Position numbers and translations under genes: made by a program
The notes under the pieces: model-generated
Seen by the model: only the letters and a program-made list of their open reading frames with translations
The model's database searches: none
Told to the model about the DNA's origin: nothing
Origin: a virus
UHGV virus genome: UHGV-0236300
Direction: 5' to 3' (one strand)
Length of the DNA stretch: 64,000 nucleotides
Shown here: one piece after another, positions 51,849 to 64,000 of the stretch
Layout: each line of letters begins with the position of its first letter
Numbering within the stretch: the stretch's first letter is position 1

Positions 51849-52181
51849 ATGGTAACATTAGAAAGACGTAAAGCTATCGCCGCCACACTGGCAGACATCT
51901 TTTGGGATTGCAATTTAAAAGATACCCGATATTGCGGCGCATCTGTAGATGTATTATTCCCACGGCCCACCATTGTTGCAATGGGTAGCCTGCTGGGTGT
52001 AGTTGCAGGTGCATGGGATAAGGAAGGTGGTTTCTATATCTGGCAGCCTGACTACGGGACCTGGAAAGAAGTAAGGGGTGCTGATGACTTTGGGCCTGCA
52101 GTTGCTAAGATGGATGGCTGGGAAATTTATGTTGGAAACGACATGAAGCTGAAAGGTGAGATTGTTTACTGGTTACCTTAA
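51849..52181 (+). CDS. hypothetical protein
   Basis: 110-aa ORF in co-directional array. Confidence 0.5.
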   Translation: MVTLERRKAIAATLADIFWDCNLKDTRYCGASVDVLFPRPTIVAMGSLLGVVAGAWDKEGGFYIWQPDYGTWKEVRGADDFGPAVAKMDGWEIYVGNDMKLKGEIVYWLP

Positions 52182-52201
52182 TAAAACGCAGGAGATAAAG
52201 T

Positions 52202-52447
52202 ATGAACAAAGGGTGGACATTTGTAGACGGCGTTAAAAACATGCCTCTAGGAAAGTATATTGTAGCCATGGCAGATGAGAATGGCAAGGTGGATTTCGGA
52301 GTTTGCGAGATTGTTCTTGCAGGATCTGGTGACTATGCCCACAAAACTGGGATAATTAACGGTCATTTCTACTTTGATTACAACCCTGTTGTGGCGTATA
52401 TGGCTATGCCAGAGTTAGAGCTCCCAAAGGAGGGTGCAGATGTTTAA
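52202..52447 (+). CDS. hypothetical protein
   Basis: RBS AGGAGA. Confidence 0.5.
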   Translation: MNKGWTFVDGVKNMPLGKYIVAMADENGKVDFGVCEIVLAGSGDYAHKTGIINGHFYFDYNPVVAYMAMPELELPKEGADV

Positions 52448-52637
52448 GCTTAAATCTGCATGGAACATTGCTGTGGGTGATGAGATCCGCATCCCTGGTG
52501 GGAAGACCGTTATGAAGATATCTCGTATTGAATACGAAGGCGACCGTGTATTCCACATCTTTGCAGAAGATGGTCGGGAAATTTATGTACAAGCGGGCTC
52601 TCACATCTATATCCGTAAGAAAGGGGATGACAAATGA
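52434..52637 (+). CDS. hypothetical protein
   Basis: RBS AAGGAGGG; short overlap with upstream gene. Confidence 0.5.
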   Translation: MQMFKLKSAWNIAVGDEIRIPGGKTVMKISRIEYEGDRVFHIFAEDGREIYVQAGSHIYIRKKGDDK

Positions 52638-52963
52638 CAGAGATCATTATTTCAACTGCAGGGTATGTATTCCTGACAATCATTGCTCTGACCATTTTGG
52701 TGGCGGTATATGGATTTGTTATTCTACCTATTCTTGAGACAATTAGTTTGTGTCGGTGTTGGAGAAAGGCTTACGGTCCACAGCCGTGGAGGGACTGGCC
52801 CCACCTGGTTCGCATAGCGTTCTCTTATGCTTATGATCACGCCAGCAGTGCATGCATAACCGGGTATCACGCTCACAATTGGAACTGGGAGGGGTTGGGT
52901 AGATGGAATGTTATAAAGACCATACCTCTACGTATGCACAAGCCTAAAAACAAAGACAGTTGA
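52634..52963 (+). CDS. hypothetical membrane protein
   Basis: ATGA overlap; hydrophobic N-terminal segment. Confidence 0.5.
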   Translation: MTEIIISTAGYVFLTIIALTILVAVYGFVILPILETISLCRCWRKAYGPQPWRDWPHLVRIAFSYAYDHASSACITGYHAHNWNWEGLGRWNVIKTIPLRMHKPKNKDS

Positions 52964-53008
52964 TACTTGAAAATCCCTGGCACATCAAGTATAAGGAGGA
53001 TTTCTAAA

Positions 53009-53116
53009 ATGGACTTCCTCCTTTTGATATTTTACCTGGCCGGATATTTTAAAATTCTTAGAAAATCAGAAAATGGATCGAAAACTAAAATGGATTTTTC
53101 AAGACAGGCGCGATAA
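53009..53116 (+). CDS. small hydrophobic peptide (35 aa)
   Basis: Not in ORF track; ATG 7 nt after AAGGAGGA; RBS lies in GGAGGA...TCCTCC inverted repeat. Confidence 0.35.
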   Translation: MDFLLLIFYLAGYFKILRKSENGSKTKMDFSRQAR

Positions 53117-53274
53117 GATGTGCTGCTCATTCTATCGTTCGCACCGTACTTTAAGTTACTATTCCAGATTTTCCGCACATACTCTCACCCTTCTACCAGA
53201 ACTTTCCCAGCTTACCTTTGACCCTTTATAACAATAAACCCATTATTCTCAGTAGGTTTTGATACATCTCTCTC

Positions 53275-53440
53275 AGTACTCGATCTGTTTTTCGTTTCAA
53301 AGATTGAATTTTCTGAAAATTTTTCTCGATAAATTTCTTAGTACTCGATCTGTTTTTCGTTTTCTGAATCAGATTTTCTGGAAATCGTTCCGGAGCTCGA
53401 CCTGAAATTTTTGGGGACGAAATCGATTTTTCGTTTTCGG
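53275..53440. repeat. direct repeats (23-bp iterons, each with a GATC site) in non-coding DNA
   Basis: AGTACTCGATCTGTTTTTCGTTT at 53275 and 53340; degenerate copies at 53392-53440. Confidence 0.6.
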
Positions 53441-53565
53441 AAATGGATTTTTAAAATTTGTATATGGAAATACTTAAGGAGGTATTATTTTATATAGAAT
53501 TGTCACGGTAGGTAATTAGCATGCTAACTAAATTTATGAAATGCGAAAAGTTCTCATTTAGAATT

Positions 53566-53584
53566 TTGAATGATAATCATTCTC
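53566..53584 (+). promoter_or_regulatory. Fur-box-like operator (copy 1)
   Basis: TTGAATGATAATCATTCTC matches 16 of 19 positions of Fur consensus GATAATGATAATCATTATC. Confidence 0.45.
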
Positions 53585-53698
53585 GTTTGCAGAATAACGG
53601 GCACCCCCGGTGATTGTCTCCCGGCCCCTGTTGCCCCGGCTTGTTATTATAGTATCACACAGGACAAAGAAAGCAAGGATTTTTTGCATAAATTTTTA

Positions 53699-53720
53699 AA
53701 TGATAATGATAACCGTTCTC
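53699..53720 (+). promoter_or_regulatory. Fur-box-like operator (copy 2)
   Basis: GATAATGATAACCGTTCTC matches 16 of 19 Fur consensus positions. Confidence 0.4.
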
Positions 53721-53941
53721 ATTTTATGCAGCGCCCATCCCCGGTGGTTGTCTCCCCCGTCACCGGTGCCTGCCGTCCTTTCGATAGGTATATTGTGCCA
53801 CCTGGCGGGGCCGCTGTCAACACTTTTCAAAAAAATTCTAACCTGATGCGCTAACCGTTGCAACCTGGCGGGGCCAGCCTGGCAGGGCTATGCTATAGGG
53901 TAGGCAACAACTGAAGAGGAGGTACAAAAATAAAAGGTAAT

Positions 53942-54103
53942 ATGATCCCTGGAAATGTAGCGATTAATGACGCTGAGGCTATCGCCCTGGTTGAAAAGGC
54001 TATGGCGGGAGCGTTGGAACATAAAGAAGAGTACGAAAAAATGATGGTTAACCTGGCAGGGGCGGCGGCTGGAGAATTCTGCCCAAAAAATAATTCTAAC
54101 TAA
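53942..54103 (+). CDS. small hypothetical protein (53 aa)
   Basis: Not in ORF track; ATG after GAAGAGGAGG. Confidence 0.45.
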   Translation: MIPGNVAINDAEAIALVEKAMAGALEHKEEYEKMMVNLAGAAAGEFCPKNNSN

Positions 54104-54186
54104 TGGTTGACAGCTCGGATAGTTCTGTTATTCTTATCCTCGCAAGGTGAACAACACCACACTAATTAACAGAGAGGATAAAAATC

Positions 54187-54384
54187 ATGAACGCCTACGG
54201 AATTAAAGTACGTCGCAACACTCGCCAGGCCGTCACCGATCAAATGATTTGCCAGGTGGACGTAACCATCAACAACGGGCAAGGCCTTTATAAATTCCGT
54301 CGCGGTCAGAGCTACACCCGGCAACAGCTTAATCGTTGCGCCCTGACAAAAGGCCAGATCAACCACTGGTTTAATAAAAAATAA
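54187..54384 (+). CDS. hypothetical small basic protein
   Basis: RBS GAGAGGA. Confidence 0.5.
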   Translation: MNAYGIKVRRNTRQAVTDQMICQVDVTINNGQGLYKFRRGQSYTRQQLNRCALTKGQINHWFNKK

Positions 54385-54387
54385 GTA

Positions 54388-54416
54388 TTGACATACAGTC
54401 TGACACCAAATACACT
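54388..54416 (+). promoter_or_regulatory. sigma70-like promoter
   Basis: TTGACA-17-TACACT. Confidence 0.45.
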
Positions 54417-54448
54417 AAAAGCACAAAAGACACTAAGAGGATAAAATC

Positions 54449-54847
54449 ATGAAAACCACTACCTTTAATTTTGATAATGCGGACTTTTCTTTTTCTGATG
54501 TCAAGAACTGCCGCCGTGATCGTGGATTTTACAAGGCCTATAATCTGGTGGGCCTGGACGATGACAATAATTTGCACGAAGTAGCTGAGATCCGGTATTA
54601 TGCCGCCGCCAGCGGGAACACTCAATACTGCGTTTTTTGGATTCACGACAACAAGAACAATAAGTACGGTTATACTGGCGGGAAGGCGAGCGGTCACGGT
54701 TACGATAAAGCTAATGCAGCACTTGAGAGCGCATTAAATGCTATGGGGATCACTGCCAACGGCTGGATCTATGAAGAAGAGTTTTTGTCGGCACTTGCTA
54801 ACCACCTGGGCTATAAAAAGCACATTGTAACATGCGCCCACGAATAA
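54449..54847 (+). CDS. hypothetical protein
   Basis: RBS AAGAGGA. Confidence 0.55.
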   Translation: MKTTTFNFDNADFSFSDVKNCRRDRGFYKAYNLVGLDDDNNLHEVAEIRYYAAASGNTQYCVFWIHDNKNNKYGYTGGKASGHGYDKANAALESALNAMGITANGWIYEEEFLSALANHLGYKKHIVTCAHE

Positions 54848-54853
54848 AAATTG

Positions 54854-54881
54854 TTGACACGCTGCAAAATTCAAGTAAACT
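54854..54881 (+). promoter_or_regulatory. sigma70-like promoter
   Basis: TTGACA-16-TAAACT. Confidence 0.45.
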
Positions 54882-54929
54882 AATCACAAAAGGCGGGAAT
54901 GTTTCCCGCCAACACAAAGGAAAAAGATC

Positions 54930-55334
54930 ATGAATAAGAACGTACGCCGCATCATGAATGAACTGGCAAACGATGAAAAAATTATTGATATGCATTTGGT
55001 GAACATTTGCCGCCGTTGTGTAACATATAACAACCGCGCCGCAAAAGCGCGTGAGATGAACGCAAAAGGCACCTTAAAGCCCTTCCAGGTGGTGGTAAAG
55101 GCCATCAAAGATGTAACTAATACGGCAAACCAGGTACAGGGGAACACCAACGAGAGTACCGATATTGATCCGGCTTACATCATGAAACGGATCCGGACCT
55201 GCAAGAACAAAGAGCAAGTGTATAACGTCATAGACTGGTTGGATTCTATGGGCGACGTGGTGTACAATAGGTTTTCTGCAGCTATCGAGATCCAGCTTGA
55301 CAGGTTGGACGGGAAAGTACTGAAAACTTATTAA
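54930..55334 (+). CDS. hypothetical protein
   Basis: RBS AAGGAAA. Confidence 0.55.
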   Translation: MNKNVRRIMNELANDEKIIDMHLVNICRRCVTYNNRAAKAREMNAKGTLKPFQVVVKAIKDVTNTANQVQGNTNESTDIDPAYIMKRIRTCKNKEQVYNVIDWLDSMGDVVYNRFSAAIEIQLDRLDGKVLKTY

Positions 55335-55335
55335 G

Positions 55336-55381
55336 TTTATTTTTAGATGGCCTTGACTCCAGGGCCATCAATAAAGTAAAC
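55336..55381 (+). repeat. conserved intergenic cassette copy 1 (T-run plus GATGGCC...GGCCATC hairpin with embedded TTGACT)
   Basis: 46-bp sequence identical to 55957-56002. Confidence 0.7.
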
Positions 55382-55414
55382 TAGTCTCAACTAAGCGAAA
55401 AAGGGGGCTTTAAG

Positions 55415-55534
55415 ATGAGCACTACACGCCAATACACAAAGGTAACTATTATCGTTTGCGTTGTCGGTTACATCCTGGCGCAAATGTTAATGAGTAGCGC
55501 CAACAGTTTTGCAAAATTTTTCTTAAATTTTTAA
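55415..55534 (+). CDS. small hydrophobic peptide (39 aa)
   Basis: Not in ORF track; ATG after AAGGGGG. Confidence 0.35.
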   Translation: MSTTRQYTKVTIIVCVVGYILAQMLMSSANSFAKFFLNF

Positions 55535-55562
55535 TTGACAAGCTAACCCAAATCAGTATACT
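55535..55562 (+). promoter_or_regulatory. sigma70-like promoter followed by conserved ACGTAAACGGGAAAACTTCCC element
   Basis: TTGACA-16-TATACT; downstream 22-bp element 55567-55588 duplicated at 57426-57447. Confidence 0.6.
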
Positions 55563-55613
55563 TAAGCACGTAAACGGGAAAACTTCCCAGAACACACAAA
55601 AGGAGAAAACACC

Positions 55614-55946
55614 ATGACTACTATGACCGCCGCAGAAAAAGCTATTCAGGTTGCCGCACTGAAAAAACAGATCGCAGACCTTGAGAACAAGATCGATAAC
55701 TTTGAAATCGACGAGGACAAGTACGACGAAAACTATGATGAATGGTTAGACGAGGTCTACGGCGAAATCATGATCGGAAACATTTCTTTTCTTCCGTCGC
55801 GTATCCTCAAGGAGCTAGATCCTATCGCTTACCGCTGCGGATTTAGCGACTACATCGACAGCCTGGATATTGAGGACGATGAAGAGTACCAAGAATTGCA
55901 AACAGAGTTGGAAGAAGCAAAAGAAGAGCTTGCAGAACTGGAATAA
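55614..55946 (+). CDS. hypothetical acidic coiled-coil protein
   Basis: RBS AAGGAGAA. Confidence 0.55.
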   Translation: MTTMTAAEKAIQVAALKKQIADLENKIDNFEIDEDKYDENYDEWLDEVYGEIMIGNISFLPSRILKELDPIAYRCGFSDYIDSLDIEDDEEYQELQTELEEAKEELAELE

Positions 55947-55956
55947 AACGAGTAAA

Positions 55957-56002
55957 TTTATTTTTAGATGGCCTTGACTCCAGGGCCATCAATAAAGTAA
56001 AC
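55957..56002 (+). repeat. conserved intergenic cassette copy 2
   Basis: Identical to 55336-55381. Confidence 0.7.
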
Positions 56003-56041
56003 TTTACACTGTTAACACTGAACTAATGAGGAGTTAAAACC

Positions 56042-56287
56042 ATGGCAGCACTAATCACCAAATATTATGCGCCTACCAACACCAAAAGCGCCCGTATCAT
56101 GGTAAAAGGCTTCGGACGTAAAAAGGTCTACACCTGGGATTATGCCTTAGATATGGAAGACAACTACACCAACGCAATGACCGATTTTATTAATGATCTG
56201 AATAAACAGATCTTAACCGACTACAAAGTGACCGATATTGCCTACGTCGGGGAAGGCGGGATCTGTTTTGTGGGCATTGTGAAATAG
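56042..56287 (+). CDS. hypothetical protein
   Basis: RBS GAGGAG. Confidence 0.5.
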   Translation: MAALITKYYAPTNTKSARIMVKGFGRKKVYTWDYALDMEDNYTNAMTDFINDLNKQILTDYKVTDIAYVGEGGICFVGIVK

Positions 56288-56330
56288 TTATTTTTTCGGT
56301 GGTCCTGGCTGCAGGGCCATCTATAAAGAT
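56288..56330 (+). repeat. conserved intergenic cassette copy 3 (diverged)
   Basis: TTATTTTTTCGGTGGTCCTGGCTGCAGGGCCATCTATAAAG, variant of the 55336 and 55957 cassette. Confidence 0.55.
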
Positions 56331-56362
56331 AATTTATTAACACCATGAAAGGAGAAAGTAAC

Positions 56363-56716
56363 ATGATCAGCGGTGCAAGTTTTATCATTGGCGCTATTGC
56401 TACGGCTTTAATTGTAAACAAGATCCAGGATAAAAAGGAAAGAGGAAGCACCGCCCTTGCAGAATATCCATTTTGGGCATTCAACGATAACGAAGATTAT
56501 ATTATAAAGTATAAAAATAAAGAAGGTGACCAAGTAACACCGCGACCGATCCCGGCTTACAAGATGCAGGAAACACTATACCGCCTGGAGGCGGGGGGCG
56601 CAAAAATTGTGGACTTTTGGGGATACGATCACACAGATCAGGAAGTTATAAAGCGCCGTATCCGGGCTATTCAGGCCAATATTGAAGTTAGCAAGGGGGG
56701 AATATATGAAGATTAA
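56363..56716 (+). CDS. hypothetical protein
   Basis: ATG after AAAGGAGAA (track start 56345 contains the RBS). Confidence 0.5.
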   Translation: MISGASFIIGAIATALIVNKIQDKKERGSTALAEYPFWAFNDNEDYIIKYKNKEGDQVTPRPIPAYKMQETLYRLEAGGAKIVDFWGYDHTDQEVIKRRIRAIQANIEVSKGGIYED

Positions 56717-56903
56717 TTTTGAGAAGATTGTAAAGCGATCTCATGATTCCGAAGAGTTGCCGGAACGCCGCCAGCGTAACAATAAACTGAATAAGCCAAA
56801 AAGATTTGGAAAGATCTGGCGAAATCATTATGATCGTAAATTGCCTGGCCTACTTTTGGAACGTGAACGACAGGCAGAACGATACCGCCATAAAGACAAA
56901 TAA
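56706..56903 (+). CDS. hypothetical small basic protein
   Basis: ATG after AAGGGGGG; overlaps upstream stop; terminator follows. Confidence 0.5.
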   Translation: MKINFEKIVKRSHDSEELPERRQRNNKLNKPKRFGKIWRNHYDRKLPGLLLERERQAERYRHKDK

Positions 56904-56911
56904 CAACCAAC

Positions 56912-56940
56912 GCCCCGCCATTGTGCGGGGCTTTTTATTT
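56912..56940 (+). terminator. rho-independent terminator
   Basis: GCCCCGC-CATTGT-GCGGGGC hairpin plus TTTTTATTT. Confidence 0.75.
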
Positions 56941-57083
56941 CTATTCTACGAATAGCGCCCCTGGTTGGCCCTGTAAGCGCCAAAAAGGCCCCCACCTATG
57001 CAATCGCCCCTTTAACCTGAAAACATCGCCCAGGGCCGTTTTATGGCGTTAAAAATATTATTGGCAGTGATTTTATTTAAAGC

Positions 57084-57111
57084 TTGACATCTTAAACAGG
57101 TTAGCTATACT
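57084..57111 (+). promoter_or_regulatory. sigma70-like promoter
   Basis: TTGACA-16-TATACT. Confidence 0.6.
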
Positions 57112-57143
57112 AACCACATCAAAGAGAGAAAGGAGTAAACGCC

Positions 57144-57404
57144 ATGCGTAAATTAAAAAATTTTGATAAAGTTGATGTTATCCTGAATAATTTTTACTAC
57201 TGCAACAACAAGGCCATTTGGTGGCGTGATAGTTCCACCGATAAAGTCAAGGCGCGCTTTCTCCAGGGGCACTGGCAAGGCCGTCCAGTGATTAAAATCA
57301 TGGGGCAATTGGTAGCGTTTAAAAATTGCCGCCGTGTTGATGACGTTGAAGAGATTTTAAACATTTTGCGCCACAATAATTTAAAAAATAGTGTTGACAA
57401 GTAA
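57144..57404 (+). CDS. hypothetical protein
   Basis: RBS AAAGGAG. Confidence 0.55.
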   Translation: MRKLKNFDKVDVILNNFYYCNNKAIWWRDSSTDKVKARFLQGHWQGRPVIKIMGQLVAFKNCRRVDDVEEILNILRHNNLKNSVDK

Positions 57405-57421
57405 ATCTCGATAAGTATACT
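57394..57421 (+). promoter_or_regulatory. sigma70-like promoter followed by conserved ACGTAAACGGGAAAACTTCCC element
   Basis: TTGACA-16-TATACT overlapping end of upstream gene; element at 57426-57447. Confidence 0.6.
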
Positions 57422-57478
57422 TAAACACGTAAACGGGAAAACTTCCCGCCACTAACAAAGAAAATAGGAGAAAATATC

Positions 57479-58102
57479 ATGACCACCGTTAACATTACCA
57501 CAGGTTGCAATTTATCTTTCGACGTGCTGACCGACGAACAAAAAGAAAAAGCTATTGAAATGGTCCGCGAAAGAGAAGAACACAGCGGAGAGGATTTTTT
57601 CGCAGAAAGTGTAATTGAATATTATAAAGAACAAGTTTTTCCAGAGTACGGCCTTGAAGATACCGAAGTACATTGGTCCGGCTTTTGGTGCCAGGGTGAC
57701 GGCGCGTCAATCAGTGCTGAAAACGTGGATTTAGAAAAATTCTTGCGTAAAGTAAAGGCCCTGACCAAGTTCCGATCAATTCGTCACTTGTTCGGCACAA
57801 TGCACGATGGCGAGTTATCAGCCAGTATTGAACGCGACAAGTACAGCCATTACAGCCATGAAAACACTGTAAGCGGATACATTGATACCACCTGGCTAGA
57901 TCTGACCGCCAAACAAGAAAACAAAGTGGAAGACCTGGAAGAGCTGATCACCGAGACGGTACGGGAGCTATCCCGCAAGGTTTATGTAGACCTGGAGGAG
58001 TCCTATCTTGAACAGTTTACTACCGAAAACCTGATCGGCCTTATTGAAGCCAATGATTGGCGGTTTGATGTGGATGAATATGGTGAGATGAGTTTTTCAT
58101 AA
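57479..58102 (+). CDS. hypothetical protein
   Basis: RBS AATAGGAGAAAA. Confidence 0.55.
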   Translation: MTTVNITTGCNLSFDVLTDEQKEKAIEMVREREEHSGEDFFAESVIEYYKEQVFPEYGLEDTEVHWSGFWCQGDGASISAENVDLEKFLRKVKALTKFRSIRHLFGTMHDGELSASIERDKYSHYSHENTVSGYIDTTWLDLTAKQENKVEDLEELITETVRELSRKVYVDLEESYLEQFTTENLIGLIEANDWRFDVDEYGEMSFS

Positions 58103-58110
58103 ATAAAGTG

Positions 58111-58138
58111 TTGCAATAATCTAAAAACCTGCTATATT
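58111..58138 (+). promoter_or_regulatory. sigma70-like promoter
   Basis: TTGCAA-16-TATATT. Confidence 0.4.
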
Positions 58139-58157
58139 TAAAACTCAAGGGGGTGAG

Positions 58158-58457
58158 ATGACTTGCCTCCCACAAAACAAAGAGGAAAACATCATGAAAC
58201 GTCTTGACCAGCTCAAACTAGTTCAGTACATGGCTTACAGAATTCTTGAAGTCCAAAAAGGTAGCAAAAAAGAAGTTTGCGAGAAAGCGTACAAGATCTT
58301 TACTCGCAAAAAAGACGATTGGATGTTACGCCAGACCAAAAAAGCCGATATCTTGGGGTACCTGGAAGAAGAGATCCGGCTTGAAGAACAAGAAGAGATC
58401 CGCCGTAGTGAGGCAGATTATCAGGCAGCTTGGGAAAACTGGATGAGCAACAAATAA
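58158..58457 (+). CDS. hypothetical protein
   Basis: ATG after AGGGGGTGAG; alternative in-frame start at 58194 after AGAGGAAAA. Confidence 0.5.
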   Translation: MTCLPQNKEENIMKRLDQLKLVQYMAYRILEVQKGSKKEVCEKAYKIFTRKKDDWMLRQTKKADILGYLEEEIRLEEQEEIRRSEADYQAAWENWMSNK

Positions 58458-58522
58458 TACAACAGGTTGCATGGTCAGGGGCGATAAAGCCCCTTGATCA
58501 CATAAAAATTATGCTATCCCTT

Positions 58523-58551
58523 GTTGACAGGGATCGGCAGTTTTGCTATAT
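58523..58551 (+). promoter_or_regulatory. sigma70-like promoter
   Basis: TTGACA-17-TATATT. Confidence 0.55.
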
Positions 58552-58601
58552 TCTTTTTTGAAGGGAAGTTGTAAGAAAATTAACTAAGAGGTAAAAACAC
58601 C

Positions 58602-59021
58602 ATGAACATTAAATCTGATAATCCGGCATATAGCTTTGATAACGCTTTTTGTCACGGTCCGGCGGCGAAAGGATTCGAAATCGATGGTAAACTAATTATT
58701 GTCAATGTTGACGGGGAAGAGGTTGCAGTATATCCGGTGGCAGACGTTAAAAGCCGTCTACAATGCCGCATAGATGTTACCGCCTATCAGCTTGATCCGG
58801 TCCGGGTAGTTGCCCTGGTCCTGGAAGAAGAAATTAAAGCAATGCACCACAGCAACAAGTTTATTGGTGACGCTCAAGATAATATGCAGGTATGCCGCTA
58901 TAAAGTTAATGAAGTGCTTAAAGAGTACGGCTATAAGGATTTAATGATCAAGCGCGATGAAAAATTCCGCTACCGTAACGACCTGGCAAATCGGATTTTT
59001 GAAATATACGAATCATTATAA
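58602..59021 (+). CDS. hypothetical protein
   Basis: RBS AAGAGGTAAAAA; terminator follows. Confidence 0.55.
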   Translation: MNIKSDNPAYSFDNAFCHGPAAKGFEIDGKLIIVNVDGEEVAVYPVADVKSRLQCRIDVTAYQLDPVRVVALVLEEEIKAMHHSNKFIGDAQDNMQVCRYKVNEVLKEYGYKDLMIKRDEKFRYRNDLANRIFEIYESL

Positions 59022-59040
59022 TTTCTTAACTGAATTATCA

Positions 59041-59067
59041 AGGGGCTTAAAGGCCCCTTTCTTTTTG
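59041..59067 (+). terminator. rho-independent terminator
   Basis: AGGGGC-TTAAAG-GCCCCT hairpin plus TTCTTTTTG. Confidence 0.75.
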
Positions 59068-59929
59068 TCTGCTCTTCTCCTACCATAAACGGCCCTACCT
59101 GGCAAGTGGAATAATTGACTAGCCATCAATCCCACATACTGTACAAATATACATGGAAAATAACTATTGCATAATCTTTCATTGTGTGGTAGCAGGGCCA
59201 TTTTTACCCGTTTTCTCTCCCAAAAGTGCACGTAATGCCGCTATTGCACAAATTTTAACCTGATGCACATCTCCAATATCTTGTCAACAACTAAAAATCT
59301 TTATAAGTCATACACTTACACAGCATCGAAAGCGTGTTCTACGCGAAAAATCGAGTATAACTATAGCCGCCAGATCTCAGAATTCACGTACGCACGCCAT
59401 TCTATAGTCTGCAAAGTATTTATTCCAACCACAGAATAACGGAATAGTCAATACCTGCATAAAATAATTATTCGTGTAAACTGCATAACATAAATCAGCT
59501 CAGGTGTCAACATTTTTCGTAAACAGTTCGAAATTGTCACGATAAGTTATTATACACAGAGAAATCTTTAGTCGTCTAATGTTTACTGTACATTACTATA
59601 CTGACTGGAATCATTAGATGACTAAGAGAAAGATAAGAAATAATTAATAATGTAATTGTTTTACCTGTAACAATAAGGCAACTATGCAAACGAATGGCAT
59701 GGCGCGACGGAGTCGCGACATAATATAAAAGCAGTAACAATCACCCCCGTGATAGTTTTTCTGCAATCTATTATTCAGATCATAGTTGCCTTGTATTTAG
59801 TTAATCATGACATAACAAGCAAGGCAACTATAGATCTTCTAATAGTTGCCCTGCTTTTATATTATGTCATAGATTGTTATCTTGTTAATTGTTTTCATGC
59901 AAACGAATGTCATGGCTTATCATCTCTGT

Positions 59930-60100
59930 GTAAACAATTTGGGCGTAAACTATTCAGATGAAAACTATTCAGGCGTAAACAGTCTATGCGTAAACAGTGA
60001 GATATGGAATAGTAACAGCCGTTATTGTGTCATATTGTGTCATTGTGTCAAAGGTAAAAGTGTCAAAAGTGACAATTTTGTCACATTGTGTCAGACAAGT
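59930..60100. repeat. iteron array: GCGTAAAC direct repeats, then TGTCA/TGACA repeat cluster
   Basis: GCGTAAAC at 59943, 59973, 59988 (and 60310); AAACTATTCAG x2; ATTGTGTCA x3 and TGTCAAAAGTGACAATTTTGTCACATTGTGTCA at 60024-60096. Confidence 0.65.
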
Positions 60101-60622
60101 TTTTCTCCTCTTTGTCAAGTGCCGCATGAAAAATTTACAAACTGGTATGGTAGCATTTTTGCGGCCCTGTTTACATTCAGGAATGTATGTATAATCCTTG
60201 CTGTGTGGGCGTTTAGACGTCTGGACGGTCAGAAGTCAGCAGGTCAATATCTAATCTATTGGTTGCTAACTATATCCCACACAAATAGTAAGAAATATAA
60301 TTGTTATGTGCGTAAACAGTAACTCATGTTATCAATCCCTGTATGTATCGCCAGTGGTGCGCATAATGGGTATTATGTTAAATTGCCCGTAATGATAACC
60401 ATTCTCACAATGATAGGTATTCTCATTCATCCCCACAAGATAGATTGCAAATGTTGTGCCACTGTGTGAACGGCCTCACCTATTAATTTGCCTCACTGCC
60501 TCGATATTTGAGAATTATTATAAAAAATGAGAAGTATTCCCATTCCGTCCGCCTGGCAGCACTCCTGTAGGACAAGCACAACATCGGGGTATAACTGGAC
60601 CTGTTCAGATATTTCTGGCTGA

Positions 60623-61163
60623 CTCTTCAGGCCTGTGTGGGAAAAGCCAACCTCTCCGGCGGCGGGGAGGGGGGTCAATTAAAAAATTTACGTGGTGTAT
60701 GAAGCGCTCTTCAGGCAAGGTGTGTATTATGGGATGAAACCCTCTTCAGGTGATGATATTTGTGGGGGGATATTTGCTGGAAAGCCAGATATGACGGGGC
60801 TCCCGGCGGGGATGGGGTAGTACAGACAGGGAAAATGTGGGGATGTGGTGGGAGTAAATTGATCAAGTAGGTAGGATATGGAATATGTTACAAGTATGTT
60901 AAATATAGAGGTAGGATATTTGTGAGATTTGTGTGTAAAATCAAAGACTTAGGTGGTGTTGTGGTATTTTCTATAAATAATTCAAGTTTAATAGGTGATA
61001 TTTGTCTCCATCCACTTTGTGTGGTAAACAGCTCCTAATTGAATTGGTTTACAAGTGTATATAAAGTATACAAATTAAAGATATAAGAAACCCCCCTCCC
61101 CCTTCGGCTACCATTCACCTTTTCCTCTGACTGGTACTTAAACACTTATTCAGACTCTTCAGG
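60623..61163. repeat. dispersed CTCTTCAGG motif copies in G/T-rich non-coding DNA
   Basis: CTCTTCAGG at 60623, 60708, 60742 and 61155 (fifth at 61815), each followed by GT-rich tract. Confidence 0.55.
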
Positions 61164-61526
61164 TTATCACCCCTATACTATATGGCAGTGACTGGTGTCC
61201 TCCGGCCCCTCTTTCGCCACCCGTCCGCTTCGCCATGCTAATGCCATAGCCAAAGGTTCGGTTGTTCACCCTGTTCACTCAGGTGTATCTCCATACCCCT
61301 TCAAACCGAAGAGAACAGAAAACCCGAATTACTCGGTAAAAGAAAAGAGAAGAACTTAATTTTATCAAGATAGGCAAGAATGTCAAGGGATGACTGCTCA
61401 CTAAACAAGCAAACAGTCATGTGTGGTAGGTAAGTAACTGGGTTGGTAGGAAATTTAGTTGGAAGATGTTATAGGTGCCTCCAGAACCTTAGCTGGGCAG
61501 CTAAACCTGCAAAGCAGACTTGTGTG

Positions 61527-61742
61527 TCAGTCCAAAGGTTCATCTACTACTTCACTGAAATCAATGTTCAGGGTCTCTTCCCAACCATCAATCTCAGCAC
61601 CAGAGTAGAGATCTTTAGGGTCTACATCAAGGGCTTCCGCAACAGCATCTATATTTAACACTTCTGGCAGGTAAGATTCATCGAATTCAAGGTAAATCAG
61701 GCCACGAGTGTTGTCAGTCCCACCAAATATTTCTATTTTCAT
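61527..61742 (-). CDS. hypothetical small acidic protein
   Basis: ATG 5 nt after AGAGGAG (track start 61808 lacks RBS). Confidence 0.5.
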   Translation of the reverse strand: MKIEIFGGTDNTRGLIYLEFDESYLPEVLNIDAVAEALDVDPKDLYSGAEIDGWEETLNIDFSEVVDEPLD

Positions 61743-61862
61743 GAAATCTCCTCTGGAAATGAGAGTGTGAACAGGGTTTATACGTTCCAATACGCTGGAA
61801 TTATGCACGTTTGCCTCTTCAGGCCATGCTTTAGCATGATAAACTTATGTGGGCTCGGTGCT

Positions 61863-62048
61863 TCATAGTCTCCCACCTCTGAACTCTTCGTGCTCGGGCA
61901 TAATAGAGAACCAGATGGCTATGATATCTTCCCACGTTAGGTCATCAGCCTCAGGATCCACCTGGGACGGAGATAGAGAATCCTCAGAATTGAAGTTTTC
62001 CTCTATCACTCCTTCAGATGTCTCTGTAGATGCATGTGTGTTGGTCAT
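61863..62048 (-). CDS. hypothetical small acidic protein
   Basis: Minus-strand ORF consistent with neighbours. Confidence 0.35.
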   Translation of the reverse strand: MTNTHASTETSEGVIEENFNSEDSLSPSQVDPEADDLTWEDIIAIWFSIMPEHEEFRGGRL

Positions 62049-62546
62049 GTTCCACCCGTGAGTATTCCGGCAACATGTTTAAAAAATAAGACTTTATCAA
62101 CATATGGCCGGAACGTGTCGATGCCATAAGCATATTCCTGCAACAGCCGCTATGGACGTAATGATCATCAGGATCACCACTAAAACCTCTGACAATGTTT
62201 TCATTGTGTATTCCATATTATCCAAACAATGTGTGGATACTATCACAGGGGCGGTAATGTGTCAACAGAAGCGCCGCGAGGGTTTGGTTAAAATCCGAGC
62301 GTATGGTGATTTGGGTCAAAACGGGCGTGCGTTCTCGCTACGCTCGAAATAGAGAGTTGTTTGTAGGATGACTTTAAACGCTCTGTAAGGAGATTAATTG
62401 TCTAAGGTATGGAATCGTGCACCAGATAAAGAAAAGGACGCCACAGAGCGTCCTAGGTGCCTTAAATTTGATATTTTGCTATACCCATGAGGGCTTGTCT
62501 AGGTTGGAGTAACTGAAGGGGGTCAAAAGGTGACTGTCAAAATCTT

Positions 62547-62789
62547 TCAAACTGTCCAAGTCTTTTCCTCGTCCTGACACCATCTGTGCCTGCATTTATT
62601 GTTGTAGTGCATGGAATGCATAGCGTTCTGCAACTTAATAGGTACAAGTGATTCAGGAGTAGATAGAATTGTTGGGTATGCCAGGACTATCTCGAACAAT
62701 GGAAACACATCGAAACTGAAGTCTATTTCTGCTGAGGTTGCTGGCATATAGGAGTATTTAGCTGTCGTTGTAGACATAATCCACCTCAC
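62547..62789 (-). CDS. hypothetical protein
   Basis: GTG start overlapping stop of upstream gene (GTGA); alternative ATG at 62777. Confidence 0.45.
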   Translation of the reverse strand: MRWIMSTTTAKYSYMPATSAEIDFSFDVFPLFEIVLAYPTILSTPESLVPIKLQNAMHSMHYNNKCRHRWCQDEEKTWTV

Positions 62790-63112
62790 ACAGGCTTGAT
62801 AATACCTTCACCGAATAACTCTTCATATTTAATCTTATCAGGATCCCACTCCTGGATAATTTCGAAGACAATATCCAGCCCAGGGATAATCACTTCTCCG
62901 GTATCAAGTCTGGCAAGAACAAAACCGGAAGGTTGAATGGTTTCCCAGTTGCGACGATTAGAATAGAGAACTTCGAAAATATCGCCAACCGCAATCTGCT
63001 GATCAAGGTGCTCAAGATTCTCTTTCATATAAACGCAGCGTATTTTCCGTGCAGGCCACAGGCCCCCTGCATCACGTTCATTTAGCTCTTTTACAGTAAT
63101 CGGCATTAGCAT
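62786..63112 (-). CDS. hypothetical protein
   Basis: 108-aa minus-strand ORF. Confidence 0.5.
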   Translation of the reverse strand: MLMPITVKELNERDAGGLWPARKIRCVYMKENLEHLDQQIAVGDIFEVLYSNRRNWETIQPSGFVLARLDTGEVIIPGLDIVFEIIQEWDPDKIKYEELFGEGIIKPV

Positions 63113-63165
63113 TTCTGATCTTCTCCATAGATAGTAAAAAGAGGGGCCAAGACCCCTCCTCGTTG

Positions 63166-63471
63166 TTATTCTGCAGAGCGTTTGAACAGAATGTCTGCTT
63201 CAGACATGTGCTCAACCTCTTCTTCGATTTTAGCTCGACGTTTTTCAGCTTCGTAGCGGATATCGAATTCGGTAGCCACCAATGACTTGATAAACTTAGG
63301 AGAATACAGGTGATCCTGTTTCTCGACAAGAATAATATCCTTGATAGCGTCTTTCAGATCTTTAATCTGAAGCTGAAGTTCCACCAGCTCTTCAATTGTT
63401 TTACGGAGGCGATCACGCTCTGCAGTGTCAGAAGGCAGAGAGGTGAACAGTTCAACTTTAGATTTAGCCAT
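63166..63471 (-). CDS. hypothetical coiled-coil protein
   Basis: ATG after AAGGAGAC; charged heptad-like sequence. Confidence 0.55.
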   Translation of the reverse strand: MAKSKVELFTSLPSDTAERDRLRKTIEELVELQLQIKDLKDAIKDIILVEKQDHLYSPKFIKSLVATEFDIRYEAEKRRAKIEEEVEHMSEADILFKRSAE

Positions 63472-63499
63472 AGTAAGAGTCTCCTTATATTGTTTTAAA

Positions 63500-63751
63500 T
63501 TAACGTTCTACAAAAATACCGTTCAGTTCAATAACCAGGAATTTCTGGTCTTCACTATCGTCACGTGCCAGCACCTCACAGACGTAACGGTCATCTCCGT
63601 CATCATCACAGTCAAACACAAGGCTGAGGACTTTATCATGATAAACCTTCGCCACTACCGCCTCGTAAGTGTTGCCGATTGTGAATCCAAGATAATCCCC
63701 GATGCATTTGACAACAACATGGTCGCCAGCATTTAAGTCAATCTTCGTCAT
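63500..63751 (-). CDS. hypothetical protein
   Basis: ATG 8 nt after AAGGAG (track start 63817 lacks RBS). Confidence 0.5.
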   Translation of the reverse strand: MTKIDLNAGDHVVVKCIGDYLGFTIGNTYEAVVAKVYHDKVLSLVFDCDDDGDDRYVCEVLARDDSEDQKFLVIELNGIFVER

Positions 63752-63878
63752 TACTGTGCTCCTTGGGTGATAATACGGTATGTAAAACTCTAACCAGAGA
63801 TGTGAATAACGCCCCAAAACACACCGATAGCGCTAAAACAGATAAGGCCATCATTAAAGCTTCAGTAAAATCAGTCAT
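63738..63878 (-). CDS. small hydrophobic protein (46 aa)
   Basis: Not in ORF track; ATG after AAGAGGTGAGGA; single hydrophobic helix; stop overlaps downstream start. Confidence 0.4.
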   Translation of the reverse strand: MTDFTEALMMALSVLALSVCFGALFTSLVRVLHTVLSPKEHSNDED

Positions 63879-64000
63879 TCCTCACCTCTTGTTAGTCACT
63901 ATACTATTATTTATCTTTGCCGTCAAGAACTTTTTTAAATCTCTCAGGAATATCTCCTGTTCTTAGATAGTTCATGACCTCACAAGGTTCCCACTTAAAC

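Follow-up and report, generated by a model that had tools for sequence, protein, structure and literature searches.

Three copies of a palindromic element lie between small early genes in a 64,000-nucleotide stretch of the virus genome UHGV-0236300 (hereafter the window), which belongs to a Vequintavirus, i.e., an rV5/FV3-like Escherichia coli myophage. The copies occupy 55334-55382, 55955-56003, and 56286-56334 on the + strand (copies 1, 2, and 3, respectively). It is considered fairly probable that the element is a promoter/stem-loop cassette of the PeSL type, located in the hyperplastic early region of Vequintavirus and combining an RNA, a promoter, and a recombination layer. In the sense transcript, each copy would form a 20-bp bipartite hairpin starting at the stop codon of the upstream ORFan and would serve as an intercistronic processing structure or as a protector of 3′ ends. 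In its likeliest form, RNase III would cut one strand at the central internal loop, leaving a hairpin that caps the upstream cistron, as at the early sites of T7. A moderate sigma-70-type promoter, composed of a T-rich stretch, TTGACT, an 18-bp spacer, and TAAACT, may feed the downstream ORFan and would have decayed in copy 3. Finally, the 50-bp copies and the promoter hexamers would supply the homology for deleting, inserting, and moving promoter-ORF-hairpin cassettes (ORF, open reading frame), also between subfamilies.

Copies and distribution of the element

A repeat search of the window returns a single three-member family, 55332-55382, 55953-56003 (98%), and 56284-56334 (73%). The run 55336-55382 is identical to 55957-56003, such that copy 2 is offset from copy 1 by +621. 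A preliminary description of this DNA had placed an identical 46-bp element at 55336-55381 and 55957-56002; its coordinates are right, and the string that it quoted carries one extra leading base. This 47-nt string is exact at 55335-55381, has one mismatch at 55956-56002 in its first base (G vs A), and finds 0 matches in 100 shuffles. The same description had proposed a diverged third copy and a search for the element elsewhere in the genome. A covariance model built on the element and run with filters off over all 64 kb recovers exactly three + strand matches, with 82.8, 81.7, and 71.0 bits for copies 1, 2, and 3, respectively, while the next + strand match has 16.4 bits (E 0.88). The reverse strands of the three copies score 30-38 bits. 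A 16-bit match at 59782-59833 was considered as a further copy and rejected, as it is an unrelated inverted repeat.

FV3, rV5, B9-1, and other relatives harbor a fourth copy 3.4-3.7 kb downstream. It is absent from the window because 3.8-4.9 kb, including the fourth copy and several ORFans, are missing at 58179-58199 relative to FV3, rV5, the IMG/VR contig L006, and phage 241Ecol014PP. The junction of this deletion is a 20-nt microhomology spanning a Shine-Dalgarno (SD) sequence and an ATG (CAAAGAGGAAAACATCATGA). In the closest relative, B9-1, a covariance scan with filters off finds no extra copies in the remaining 86 kb.

BLAST with the 56-nt element matches 121 phage records, typically at three places per record, with the diverged copy 3 escaping detection. 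All of these records are Vequintavirus except one, the Justusliebigvirus KKE7M, and no divergent orthologous elements are found beyond these genomes by BLAST with the element itself. In IMG/VR and the JGI metagenomes, scans for exact patterns find the element only on Vequintavirus-like contigs; four other IMG/VR matches of a loose first pattern were rejected as chance, since they lack the flanking stems. A host origin or membership in a REP-like family was likewise rejected, as none of 5,426 complete E. coli genomes contains a match. The single "plasmid" match, CP057073.1, is itself a 137.6-kb Vequintavirus genome. Seventeen GenBank records labeled "Campylobacter phage" are near-identical to Vequintavirus genomes; these records and the "plasmid" are probably mislabeled or co-isolated coliphage.

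Distant homologues of the 81-aa and 110-aa ORFans (aa, amino acids) next to the copies are found in unrelated phages, namely Seuratvirus and phages of Pseudomonas and Vibrio. None of the Rfam 15 covariance models matches 52000-64000 with E up to 1, and the element is unannotated in both the rV5 genome paper and the rV5 GenBank record. The literature search found no paper linking PeSLs to rV5-like phages and no Vequintavirus transcriptome or end-mapping data. Within the literature searched, the rV5-like phages are a group in which such a cassette had not been described before.

The hairpin and selection on its fold

On the + strand, each copy is predicted to fold into a 10-bp A/U-rich lower stem, a 2 × 3 internal loop, a 10-bp G/C-rich upper stem, and a tetraloop. 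The upper stem is formed by GAUGGCCUUG/CAGGGCCAUC (10 bp), and the upstream T-run pairs with the downstream AAAGUAAACU to form the second 10-bp stem. The internal loop reads UA/AAU in copies 1 and 2 and UC/UAU in copy 3, and the lower stem of copy 2 can be extended by 5 bp (GUAAA/UUUAC) around a bulged C. The preliminary description had noted a T-run followed by a GATGGCC...GGCCATC inverted repeat with TTGACT in its loop. The inverted repeat is confirmed, and the remainder requires revision: the T-run is paired, and because the stem is longer (10 bp) than GATGGCC/GGCCATC, the TTG of TTGACT lies inside the upper stem and the loop consists of ACUC only.

The lower stem starts within or next to the upstream stop codon. 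In copy 1, the stem opens with the final A of the TAA that ends the 134-aa gene, and stop codons overlap or abut the first stem bases across the copies and their orthologues, with the exception of copy 2 in the window. There, the element lies 8 nt beyond the stop codon because the 110-aa ORF carries a premature TAA at 55944-55946 (GAA to TAA), 9 nt before the stop of the relatives, in which the stop abuts the element. An SD sequence and an ATG follow 33-39 nt beyond copies 1 and 2 and 29 nt beyond copy 3.

The three elements are the most stable local folds in 53.8-59.2 kb. The + strand folding energies of copies 1, 2, and 3 are −25.0, −24.8, and −24.6 kcal/mol, with z-scores of −6.2, −6.6, and −4.5 against dinucleotide shuffles, while the reverse strands give −17.2, −17.0, and −10.4 kcal/mol (z −2.3, −2.9, and −0.5).

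Copies collected from nine annotated relatives and several metagenomic contigs amount to 31 distinct 55-mers. The pattern used for the metagenomes fixed the upper stem by design, and a model search on whole loci gave the same set. In a pairing test with 21 distinct copies from 10 genomes, standard pairs are present in 98.1% of pair cells on the + strand. Shuffling of columns gives 94.5 ± 0.6%, with 0 of 500 shuffles reaching the observed value, slid registers give 35-56%, and the same structure on the − strand gives 86.7%. Double changes occur at four lower-stem pairs (G-C/A-U/G-U, U-A/C-G, U-A/A-U, and A-U/U-A), and three upper-stem pairs show one-sided changes that remain paired as G·U or U·G. 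One U·G pair is invariant, and G·U pairs occur at two to four positions, which correspond to C·A mismatches on the − strand. Copy 3 and its orthologues keep the fold via compensatory and G·U-preserving changes. The loop varies among ACUC, ACUU, ACAC, ACCC, ACGC, GCUG, GUUG, GUAG, and GUAA. Because the conserved pairing holds only on the + strand, the comparison of copies indicates that the RNA structure of the sense transcript is under selection. The hairpin part of the preliminary interpretation thus gains support from substitutions that are compensatory or preserve wobble pairs.

Resemblance to RNase III sites

The element, with 10 + 10 bp around a 2 × 3 internal loop, spans about two helical turns. 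With the same folding procedure, the early intergenic hairpins of T7 show this layout, with 8 bp in the lower stem and 9-10 bp in the upper stem on the two sides of an internal loop. In the spacer between T7 genes 0.4 and 0.5, for example, the lower stem is A/U and 8 bp long, the upper stem of 9-10 bp closes on a 5-nt loop, and an internal loop separates the two stems (−24.4 kcal/mol). The T7 hairpins are the established RNase III sites R0.3, R0.5, R1, R1.1, and R1.3, and the folded R1.1 sequence agrees with the published one (PMC1540722). RNase III substrates span approximately two helical turns (~20-22 bp), and the sequence of their loop is irrelevant (PMC1540722). Internal loops limit cleavage to one strand, such that a protective 3′ hairpin is left (PMC1540722), and RNase III sites are enriched in intergenic regions inside transcripts (PMC6212723). 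In the element, the pairs of the lower stem beside the internal loop are all U-A or U-G, which is favorable for RNase III. By analogy with these sites, processing or stabilizing is the likeliest function of the hairpin at the RNA level. That RNase III specifically is the agent is given a chance somewhat short of even, and a plain exonuclease barrier is the fallback reading.

Promoter-like hexamers

The TTGACT-N18-TAAACT of the element has 9/12 matches to the consensus, compared to 10-11/12 for neighboring promoters. Between 54.1 and 58.6 kb, the elements occupy the intergenic slots that lack a strong TTGACA-type promoter. Over ~24 distinct variants of copies 1, 2, and 4, TTGAC and TAAAyT are invariant, while the two loop bases following TTGAC take all four letters. 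The sixth position of the −35 hexamer is the least constrained. The invariance of TTGAC and the freedom of the next bases fit a −35 hexamer, with part of the pattern explained by the stem alone. In copy 3, the corresponding position reads CTGGCT, CTGGTT, or CTGGTA across variants, and the hairpin is kept. As copy 3 keeps the hairpin without the −35, the function of the hairpin would be independent of the promoter and the two functions separable.

The best evidence for a promoter is comparative. In the phi92-like phage muut, a conserved gene lies behind its resident promoter, TTGACA-agataactaaaatcag-TAAACT-atattcattaaGGCGGTGG (N16). In KKE7M, the same gene, with its hairpin in the 5′ untranslated region (5′UTR), is preceded by the element, TTGACT-ccagggccatcaataaag-TAAATT-atattcattaaGGCGGTGG (N18), joined exactly in the −10. 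The hexamers of the element thereby stand in exact register for the resident promoter, which supports their reading as promoter elements. In the record of phage Gotham, copy 2 carries a PhagePromoter prediction, which is a computational annotation only. An embedded sigma-70-type promoter is plausible on these grounds.

Copy 1 of Gotham (L001 2383-2432) has naturally lost 5 bp (GGGCC); the 3′ arm of the upper stem is gone, and the promoter spacer is reduced to 13 bp. Judged from its sequence, this deletion destroys both the hairpin and the promoter and represents a natural knock-out of copy 1.

Recombination between copies and cassette exchange

The role of the copies as recombination junctions, which the preliminary description had missed, is the best-documented property of the element. 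Contig L006 harbors a single element with the left flank of copy 1 and the right flank of copy 2. Its positions 26-264 align to 55144-55382 of the window and 218-2457 to 55957-58199, and the two alignments overlap exactly over the element. The contig lacks the intervening 621 bp, which contain the 39-aa ORF, the promoter, and the 110-aa ORF. A chimera in 241Ecol014PP follows copy 2 up to CAATAAAG and copy 3 from ATAATTTATT on, and the 81-aa gene is absent; the lower stem of this chimera has two mismatches, exactly at covarying pairs. In some genomes, two different copies carry the same rare loop variant: 241Ecol014PP and contig Ga0129313 each have ACAC twice, and rV5 and UADI01000001 each have ACUU twice. 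This sharing suggests gene conversion between copies. Taken together, these arrangements indicate that the copies are junctions for the gain and loss of small gene cassettes. No target-site duplication is visible at the element ends, and MITE-like transposition (MITE, miniature inverted-repeat transposable element) was rejected on this basis.

KKE7M belongs to the subfamily Stephanstirmvirinae and carries 468 bp that are 94.7% identical to 55534-56001 of the window. Within the resident promoter, this cassette is joined to the spacer at its left end and to the −10 at its right end. A single crossover between a circular form of the cassette and the resident promoter would give the hybrid promoters of KKE7M exactly; the circle itself is what we infer from the two junctions.

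A more far-reaching proposal, which is regarded as rather unlikely as a whole, takes the element as the 3′ boundary of an exchangeable cassette consisting of a strong promoter, a 5′UTR hairpin, an ORFan, and an RNase III-type hairpin with an embedded promoter. Such a cassette would move as a small circle and integrate by a single crossover into any resident early promoter, even across subfamilies (Vequintavirinae to Stephanstirmvirinae). The hairpin would insulate cassettes post-transcriptionally so that insertion spares the neighbors. If true, such cassettes would be analogous to those of integrons but would target promoters and require no integrase.

The window contains a second repeated module at 55535-55600 and 57394-57459 (also 54854-54910), composed of TTGACA-N16-TATACT, a 5′UTR hairpin (GGGAAAACUUCCC or GGCGGGAAUGUUUCCCGCC), and an SD sequence. 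Its two main copies are 80% identical. From its layout, the module would be another PeSL-like class, in which the stem-loop is downstream of the −10. The KKE7M cassette has its left junction in a promoter of this module type.

Alternative explanations

Several observations weigh against the PeSL-type interpretation. The independent lineages behind the covariation are few, mainly copy 3 vs copies 1, 2, and 4, and 33 of 500 shuffles reach four pairs with double changes, such that the signal is suggestive and not overwhelming. The elements are barely more conserved than the neighboring coding sequences: over nine genomes, the variable columns amount to 13.6% in the elements, 15.9% in coding sequences, and 21.8% in other intergenic DNA. 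The upper stem starts with a G-C pair next to the internal loop, and in the R1.1 minimal substrate, a G-C beside the scissile bond suppresses cleavage as a catalytic antideterminant (PMC1540722). The enzyme might thus only bind the element, or its cut might lie elsewhere. The 9/12 promoter match with its suboptimal 18-bp spacer is by itself weak evidence, as such matches are common in this A/T-rich region (52 vs 28 expected), and copy 3 is a hairpin with a poor −35. Finally, PeSL stem-loops are reported to be strong terminators, while the hairpin of the element has no U-tract.

The rival that survives best, still held to be unlikely, is that the element is an RNA hairpin alone, i.e., an RNase III site or exonuclease barrier in a polycistronic early mRNA. 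The hexamers would then be by-products of the stem, and the downstream genes would be read through from the promoters at 54854 and 55535. Read-through is feasible, as the first terminator-like site of the unit occurs only at 56912. The resemblance to T7 RNase III sites, the selection visible on base pairing, the weak promoter match, and the retention of the fold without the −35 in copy 3 all speak for a hairpin with no further role. Against it stand the hexamers that stay invariant in copies 1, 2, and 4 while the next two bases vary, their replacing a resident promoter in exact register in KKE7M, and the location of the element in the slot that promoters use in neighboring intergenic regions.

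It is improbable that the hairpin attenuates or terminates transcription and thereby limits read-through from the early promoters upstream, a role that has been proposed and measured for the stem-loops of the RB49/phi1 PeSLs. The location directly after stop codons and the stable G/C-rich upper stem would suit this function, and a PeSL stem-loop cut lacZ expression about as much as rrnB T1 (PMC2839356). However, the sequence after the G/C stem is AAUAAAG, that after the full stem is AGUCUC, UUACAC, or UAUUAA, and the − strand stem is followed by an A-run; no U-tract is present on either strand. A terminator scan of the early run makes only two calls, 56912-56931 and 59040-59059, and none at the three elements. 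An intrinsic terminator was thus rejected for either strand, and the attenuator suggested in the preliminary description is unsupported in this form. In addition, the genes after copies 1 and 3 lack a good promoter of their own and therefore seem to need read-through.

The palindrome could also be a DNA operator through which a dimeric regulator, of the phage or of the host, represses or activates the embedded promoter. It is a 47-bp near-palindrome centered on the −35 and recurs without change at several promoter-like sites. Wherever the dyad symmetry is broken, however, the positions form a G·U or U·G pair on the + strand and C·A on the − strand (one invariant U·G and three variable positions), which disfavors the symmetric DNA-binding site that had been considered before. 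Compensatory double substitutions alter both half-sites yet keep the pairing, and the center of the dyad, i.e., the loop, varies freely. An operator is thus very improbable.

Equally improbable are functionless remnants of a segmental duplication or scars of illegitimate recombination: the region is highly plastic and shuffles fast, and the only 3-4 copies all lie within ~4.5 kb, but the copies are not leftovers of a larger duplication, as the flanking genes are mutually unrelated, the fold is kept by compensatory change, and the elements, which 121 genomes retain, are less variable than other intergenic DNA.

Genomic neighborhood

With the PeSL-type cassette as the favored interpretation, its surroundings can be described as follows (Table 1). 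The 4 kb around the repeats match 123 phage records, 112 of them over most of the length, with 90-97% identity. The repeats sit in a + strand series of small genes (~53.9-59.1 kb), in which nearly every gene is preceded by a near-consensus sigma-70 promoter, TTGACA-N16/17-TATACT, and several of these strong promoters have a short 5′UTR hairpin directly downstream. All ten proteins tested near the repeats (10/10) fall in PHROGs without an assigned function. The region is hyperplastic, with several indels among close relatives.

The preliminary description had the first two copies following the stop codons of two consecutive genes. The location at stop codons holds, but the genes are not strictly consecutive, since the 39-aa ORF (55415-55534) and the strong promoter at 55535 separate copy 1 from the 110-aa gene. 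Minus-strand ORFs of 29 and 49 aa over copies 1 and 2 are mere translations of the repeat, and coding on this strand was rejected.

Table 1. Features of the element and of the early region of the window (positions within the 64,000 nucleotides)
Feature	Position	Strand	Details
Copy 1	55334-55382	+	Lower stem 55334-55343/55373-55382; upper stem 55346-55355/55360-55369; loop ACUC 55356-55359
Copy 1, internal loop	55344-55345 and 55370-55372	+	Predicted fold
Copy 2	55955-56003	+	Anatomy of copy 1 shifted by +621
Copy 3, diverged	56286-56334	+	Lower stem 56286-56295/56325-56334; upper stem 56298-56307/56312-56321; loop GCUG
Promoter-like hexamers, copy 1	55353-55382	+	TTGACT 55353-55358, 18-bp spacer, TAAACT 55377-55382; 9/12 consensus matches
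T-rich stretch upstream of copy 1 hexamers	55337-55344	+	From sequence
Promoter-like hexamers, copy 2	55974-55979 and 55998-56003	+	TTGACT and TAAACT; from sequence
Hexamers, copy 3	56328-56333 (−10-like)	+	−35 degenerate, CTGGCT; −10-like GATAAT; from sequence
Strong promoters TTGACA-N16/17-TATACT	54107, 54388, 54854, 55535, 57084, 57394, 58524	+	Promoter scan
134-aa early ORFan, phrog_13245	54930-55334	+	Stop codon runs into copy 1
39-aa hydrophobic ORF, phrog_16391	55415-55534	+	Conserved; downstream of copy 1; without a canonical strong promoter of its own
110-aa ORF	55614-55946	+	Downstream of strong promoter 55535, upstream of copy 2
81-aa ORFan, phrog_3199	56042-56287	+	Between copies 2 and 3; absent from phage 241Ecol014PP
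117-aa ORFan, phrog_12734	56363-56716	+	Downstream of copy 3
T7 gp1.1-like ORF, 65 aa	56706-56900	+	PF08200, E 2e-11; after the 117-aa ORFan, same early operon
First intrinsic-terminator-like site of the unit	56912-56931 plus T-run	+	Terminator scan
Mobile cassette	55534-56001	+	Promoter 55535-55562 (TTGACA-N16-TATACT), 5′UTR hairpin GGGAAAACUUCCC, 110-aa ORF, copy 2; 468 bp, 94.7% identity in Justusliebigvirus KKE7M

Three further regions of the window are of interest. At 52950-53900, approximately 1 kb without a convincing ORF contains imperfect 65-74-nt direct repeats (53266-53312, 53331-53377, and 53405-53451). It corresponds to the "non-coding" box of the rV5 genome paper, several copies of the repeat are present in relatives, and the region could be an origin or a regulatory region. 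At 58472-58500, a hairpin without a U-tract (GGUCAGGGGC...GCCCCUUGAUC) directly follows a stop codon and lies just upstream of the promoter at 58524, i.e., the stem-loop is arranged upstream of the −35. Lastly, 59100-60100 is a repeat-rich non-coding region between the + strand early unit and − strand genes. It contains ATAGTTGCC(y)TG in both orientations at 59675, 59782, 59821, and 59842, an 18-nt perfect inverted repeat (59717-59734/59851-59868), and several GCGTAAAC and several ATTGTGTCA repeats, and it may be a cluster of operators or origins.

Significance

PeSL cassettes have until now been described only in T4-like phages, and the rV5-like case suggests a general device for shuffling early ORFans in large virulent phages. 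Two aspects go beyond the routine: the covariation found for a T7-like intercistronic hairpin, from few independent lineages, and the transfer of a cassette across subfamilies, into a phi92-like phage, where both of its junctions fall within promoter hexamers.

Many anti-defense and host-takeover genes are found among small early ORFans, and rV5-like phages are widely used among therapeutic phages. The exchange of these genes is thus relevant to phage host range and to efforts to engineer phages for therapy. Copies 1 and 2 (promoter-like and hairpin) and copy 3 (hairpin only) represent natural mutants that separate both functions. Given the T7-like geometry, it can be tested directly whether early mRNAs are processed by host RNase III outside the T7 group as well.

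Comparison with known systems

The REP/BIME sequences of E. coli and the Correia elements of Neisseria are small palindromic intergenic repeats that shape the fate of mRNA and occur in hundreds of copies. Correia elements have promoter hexamers inside, are cut by RNase III, and are MITEs with target-site duplications. The element shares with both families a short imperfect palindrome at the 3′ ends of genes, promoter-like hexamers inside, and a potential as exonuclease barrier or RNase III substrate. The analogy is functional only: REP/BIME and Correia are families of host chromosomes with hundreds of copies, whereas the element is absent from the E. coli genomes searched and has no target duplication.

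Like intrinsic terminators, the element places a stable G/C-rich hairpin directly after a stop codon. In contrast to them, its T-run is on the 5′ side and is paired with an A-rich run on the 3′ side, and neither strand provides a U-tract.

The RNase III sites of T7 likewise lie between early cistrons. Like the element, they have a lower stem rich in A/U and a 10-bp upper stem rich in G/C on either side of a central internal loop, and they end in a small loop of free sequence. Promoters adjoin hairpins in the T7 early region, too. There is no sequence homology to these sites, however, and the internal loop of the element is smaller (2 × 3). The R1.1 model prefers a weak pair beside the loop, where the element has G-C.

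The closest relatives in architecture are the PeSLs, a correspondence that the preliminary description had also overlooked. They are known from the T4-like phages RB49/phi1, T4/PST, and KVP40/nt-1 (Arbiol et al. 2010, PMC2839356; Comeau et al. 2014, PMC4122927). The PeSL motif comprises an upstream stop codon in an A/T-rich stretch, sigma-70-like −35 and −10 sequences, a stem-loop, an SD sequence, and a start codon, and it has a role in shuffling (PMC2839356, PMC4122927). Its stem-loop has five described positions, one subclass overlapping the −35, and contains G·T pairs (PMC2839356, PMC4122927). In lacZ reporter fusions, PeSL motifs behave as strong promoters, and their mini-circles can be detected by inverse PCR (PMC2839356). 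There are several differences between the two. PeSL promoters match the consensus, whereas the element has 9/12 matches, a suboptimal spacer, and CTGGCT in copy 3. The host phage belongs to the Vequintavirinae and is not T4-like. The stem of the element is a long bipartite 20-bp A/U + G/C helix, in contrast to the poly-G/poly-C stem of PeSLs; it lacks terminator features, and only 3-4 copies occur per genome. The shared features are that the element runs from a stop codon within A/T-rich sequence to an SD sequence and an ATG, that its stem-loop with G·U pairs overlaps the −35, that it is located in a hyperplastic region rich in ORFans, and that recombination between its copies gives rise to indels and chimeric motifs.

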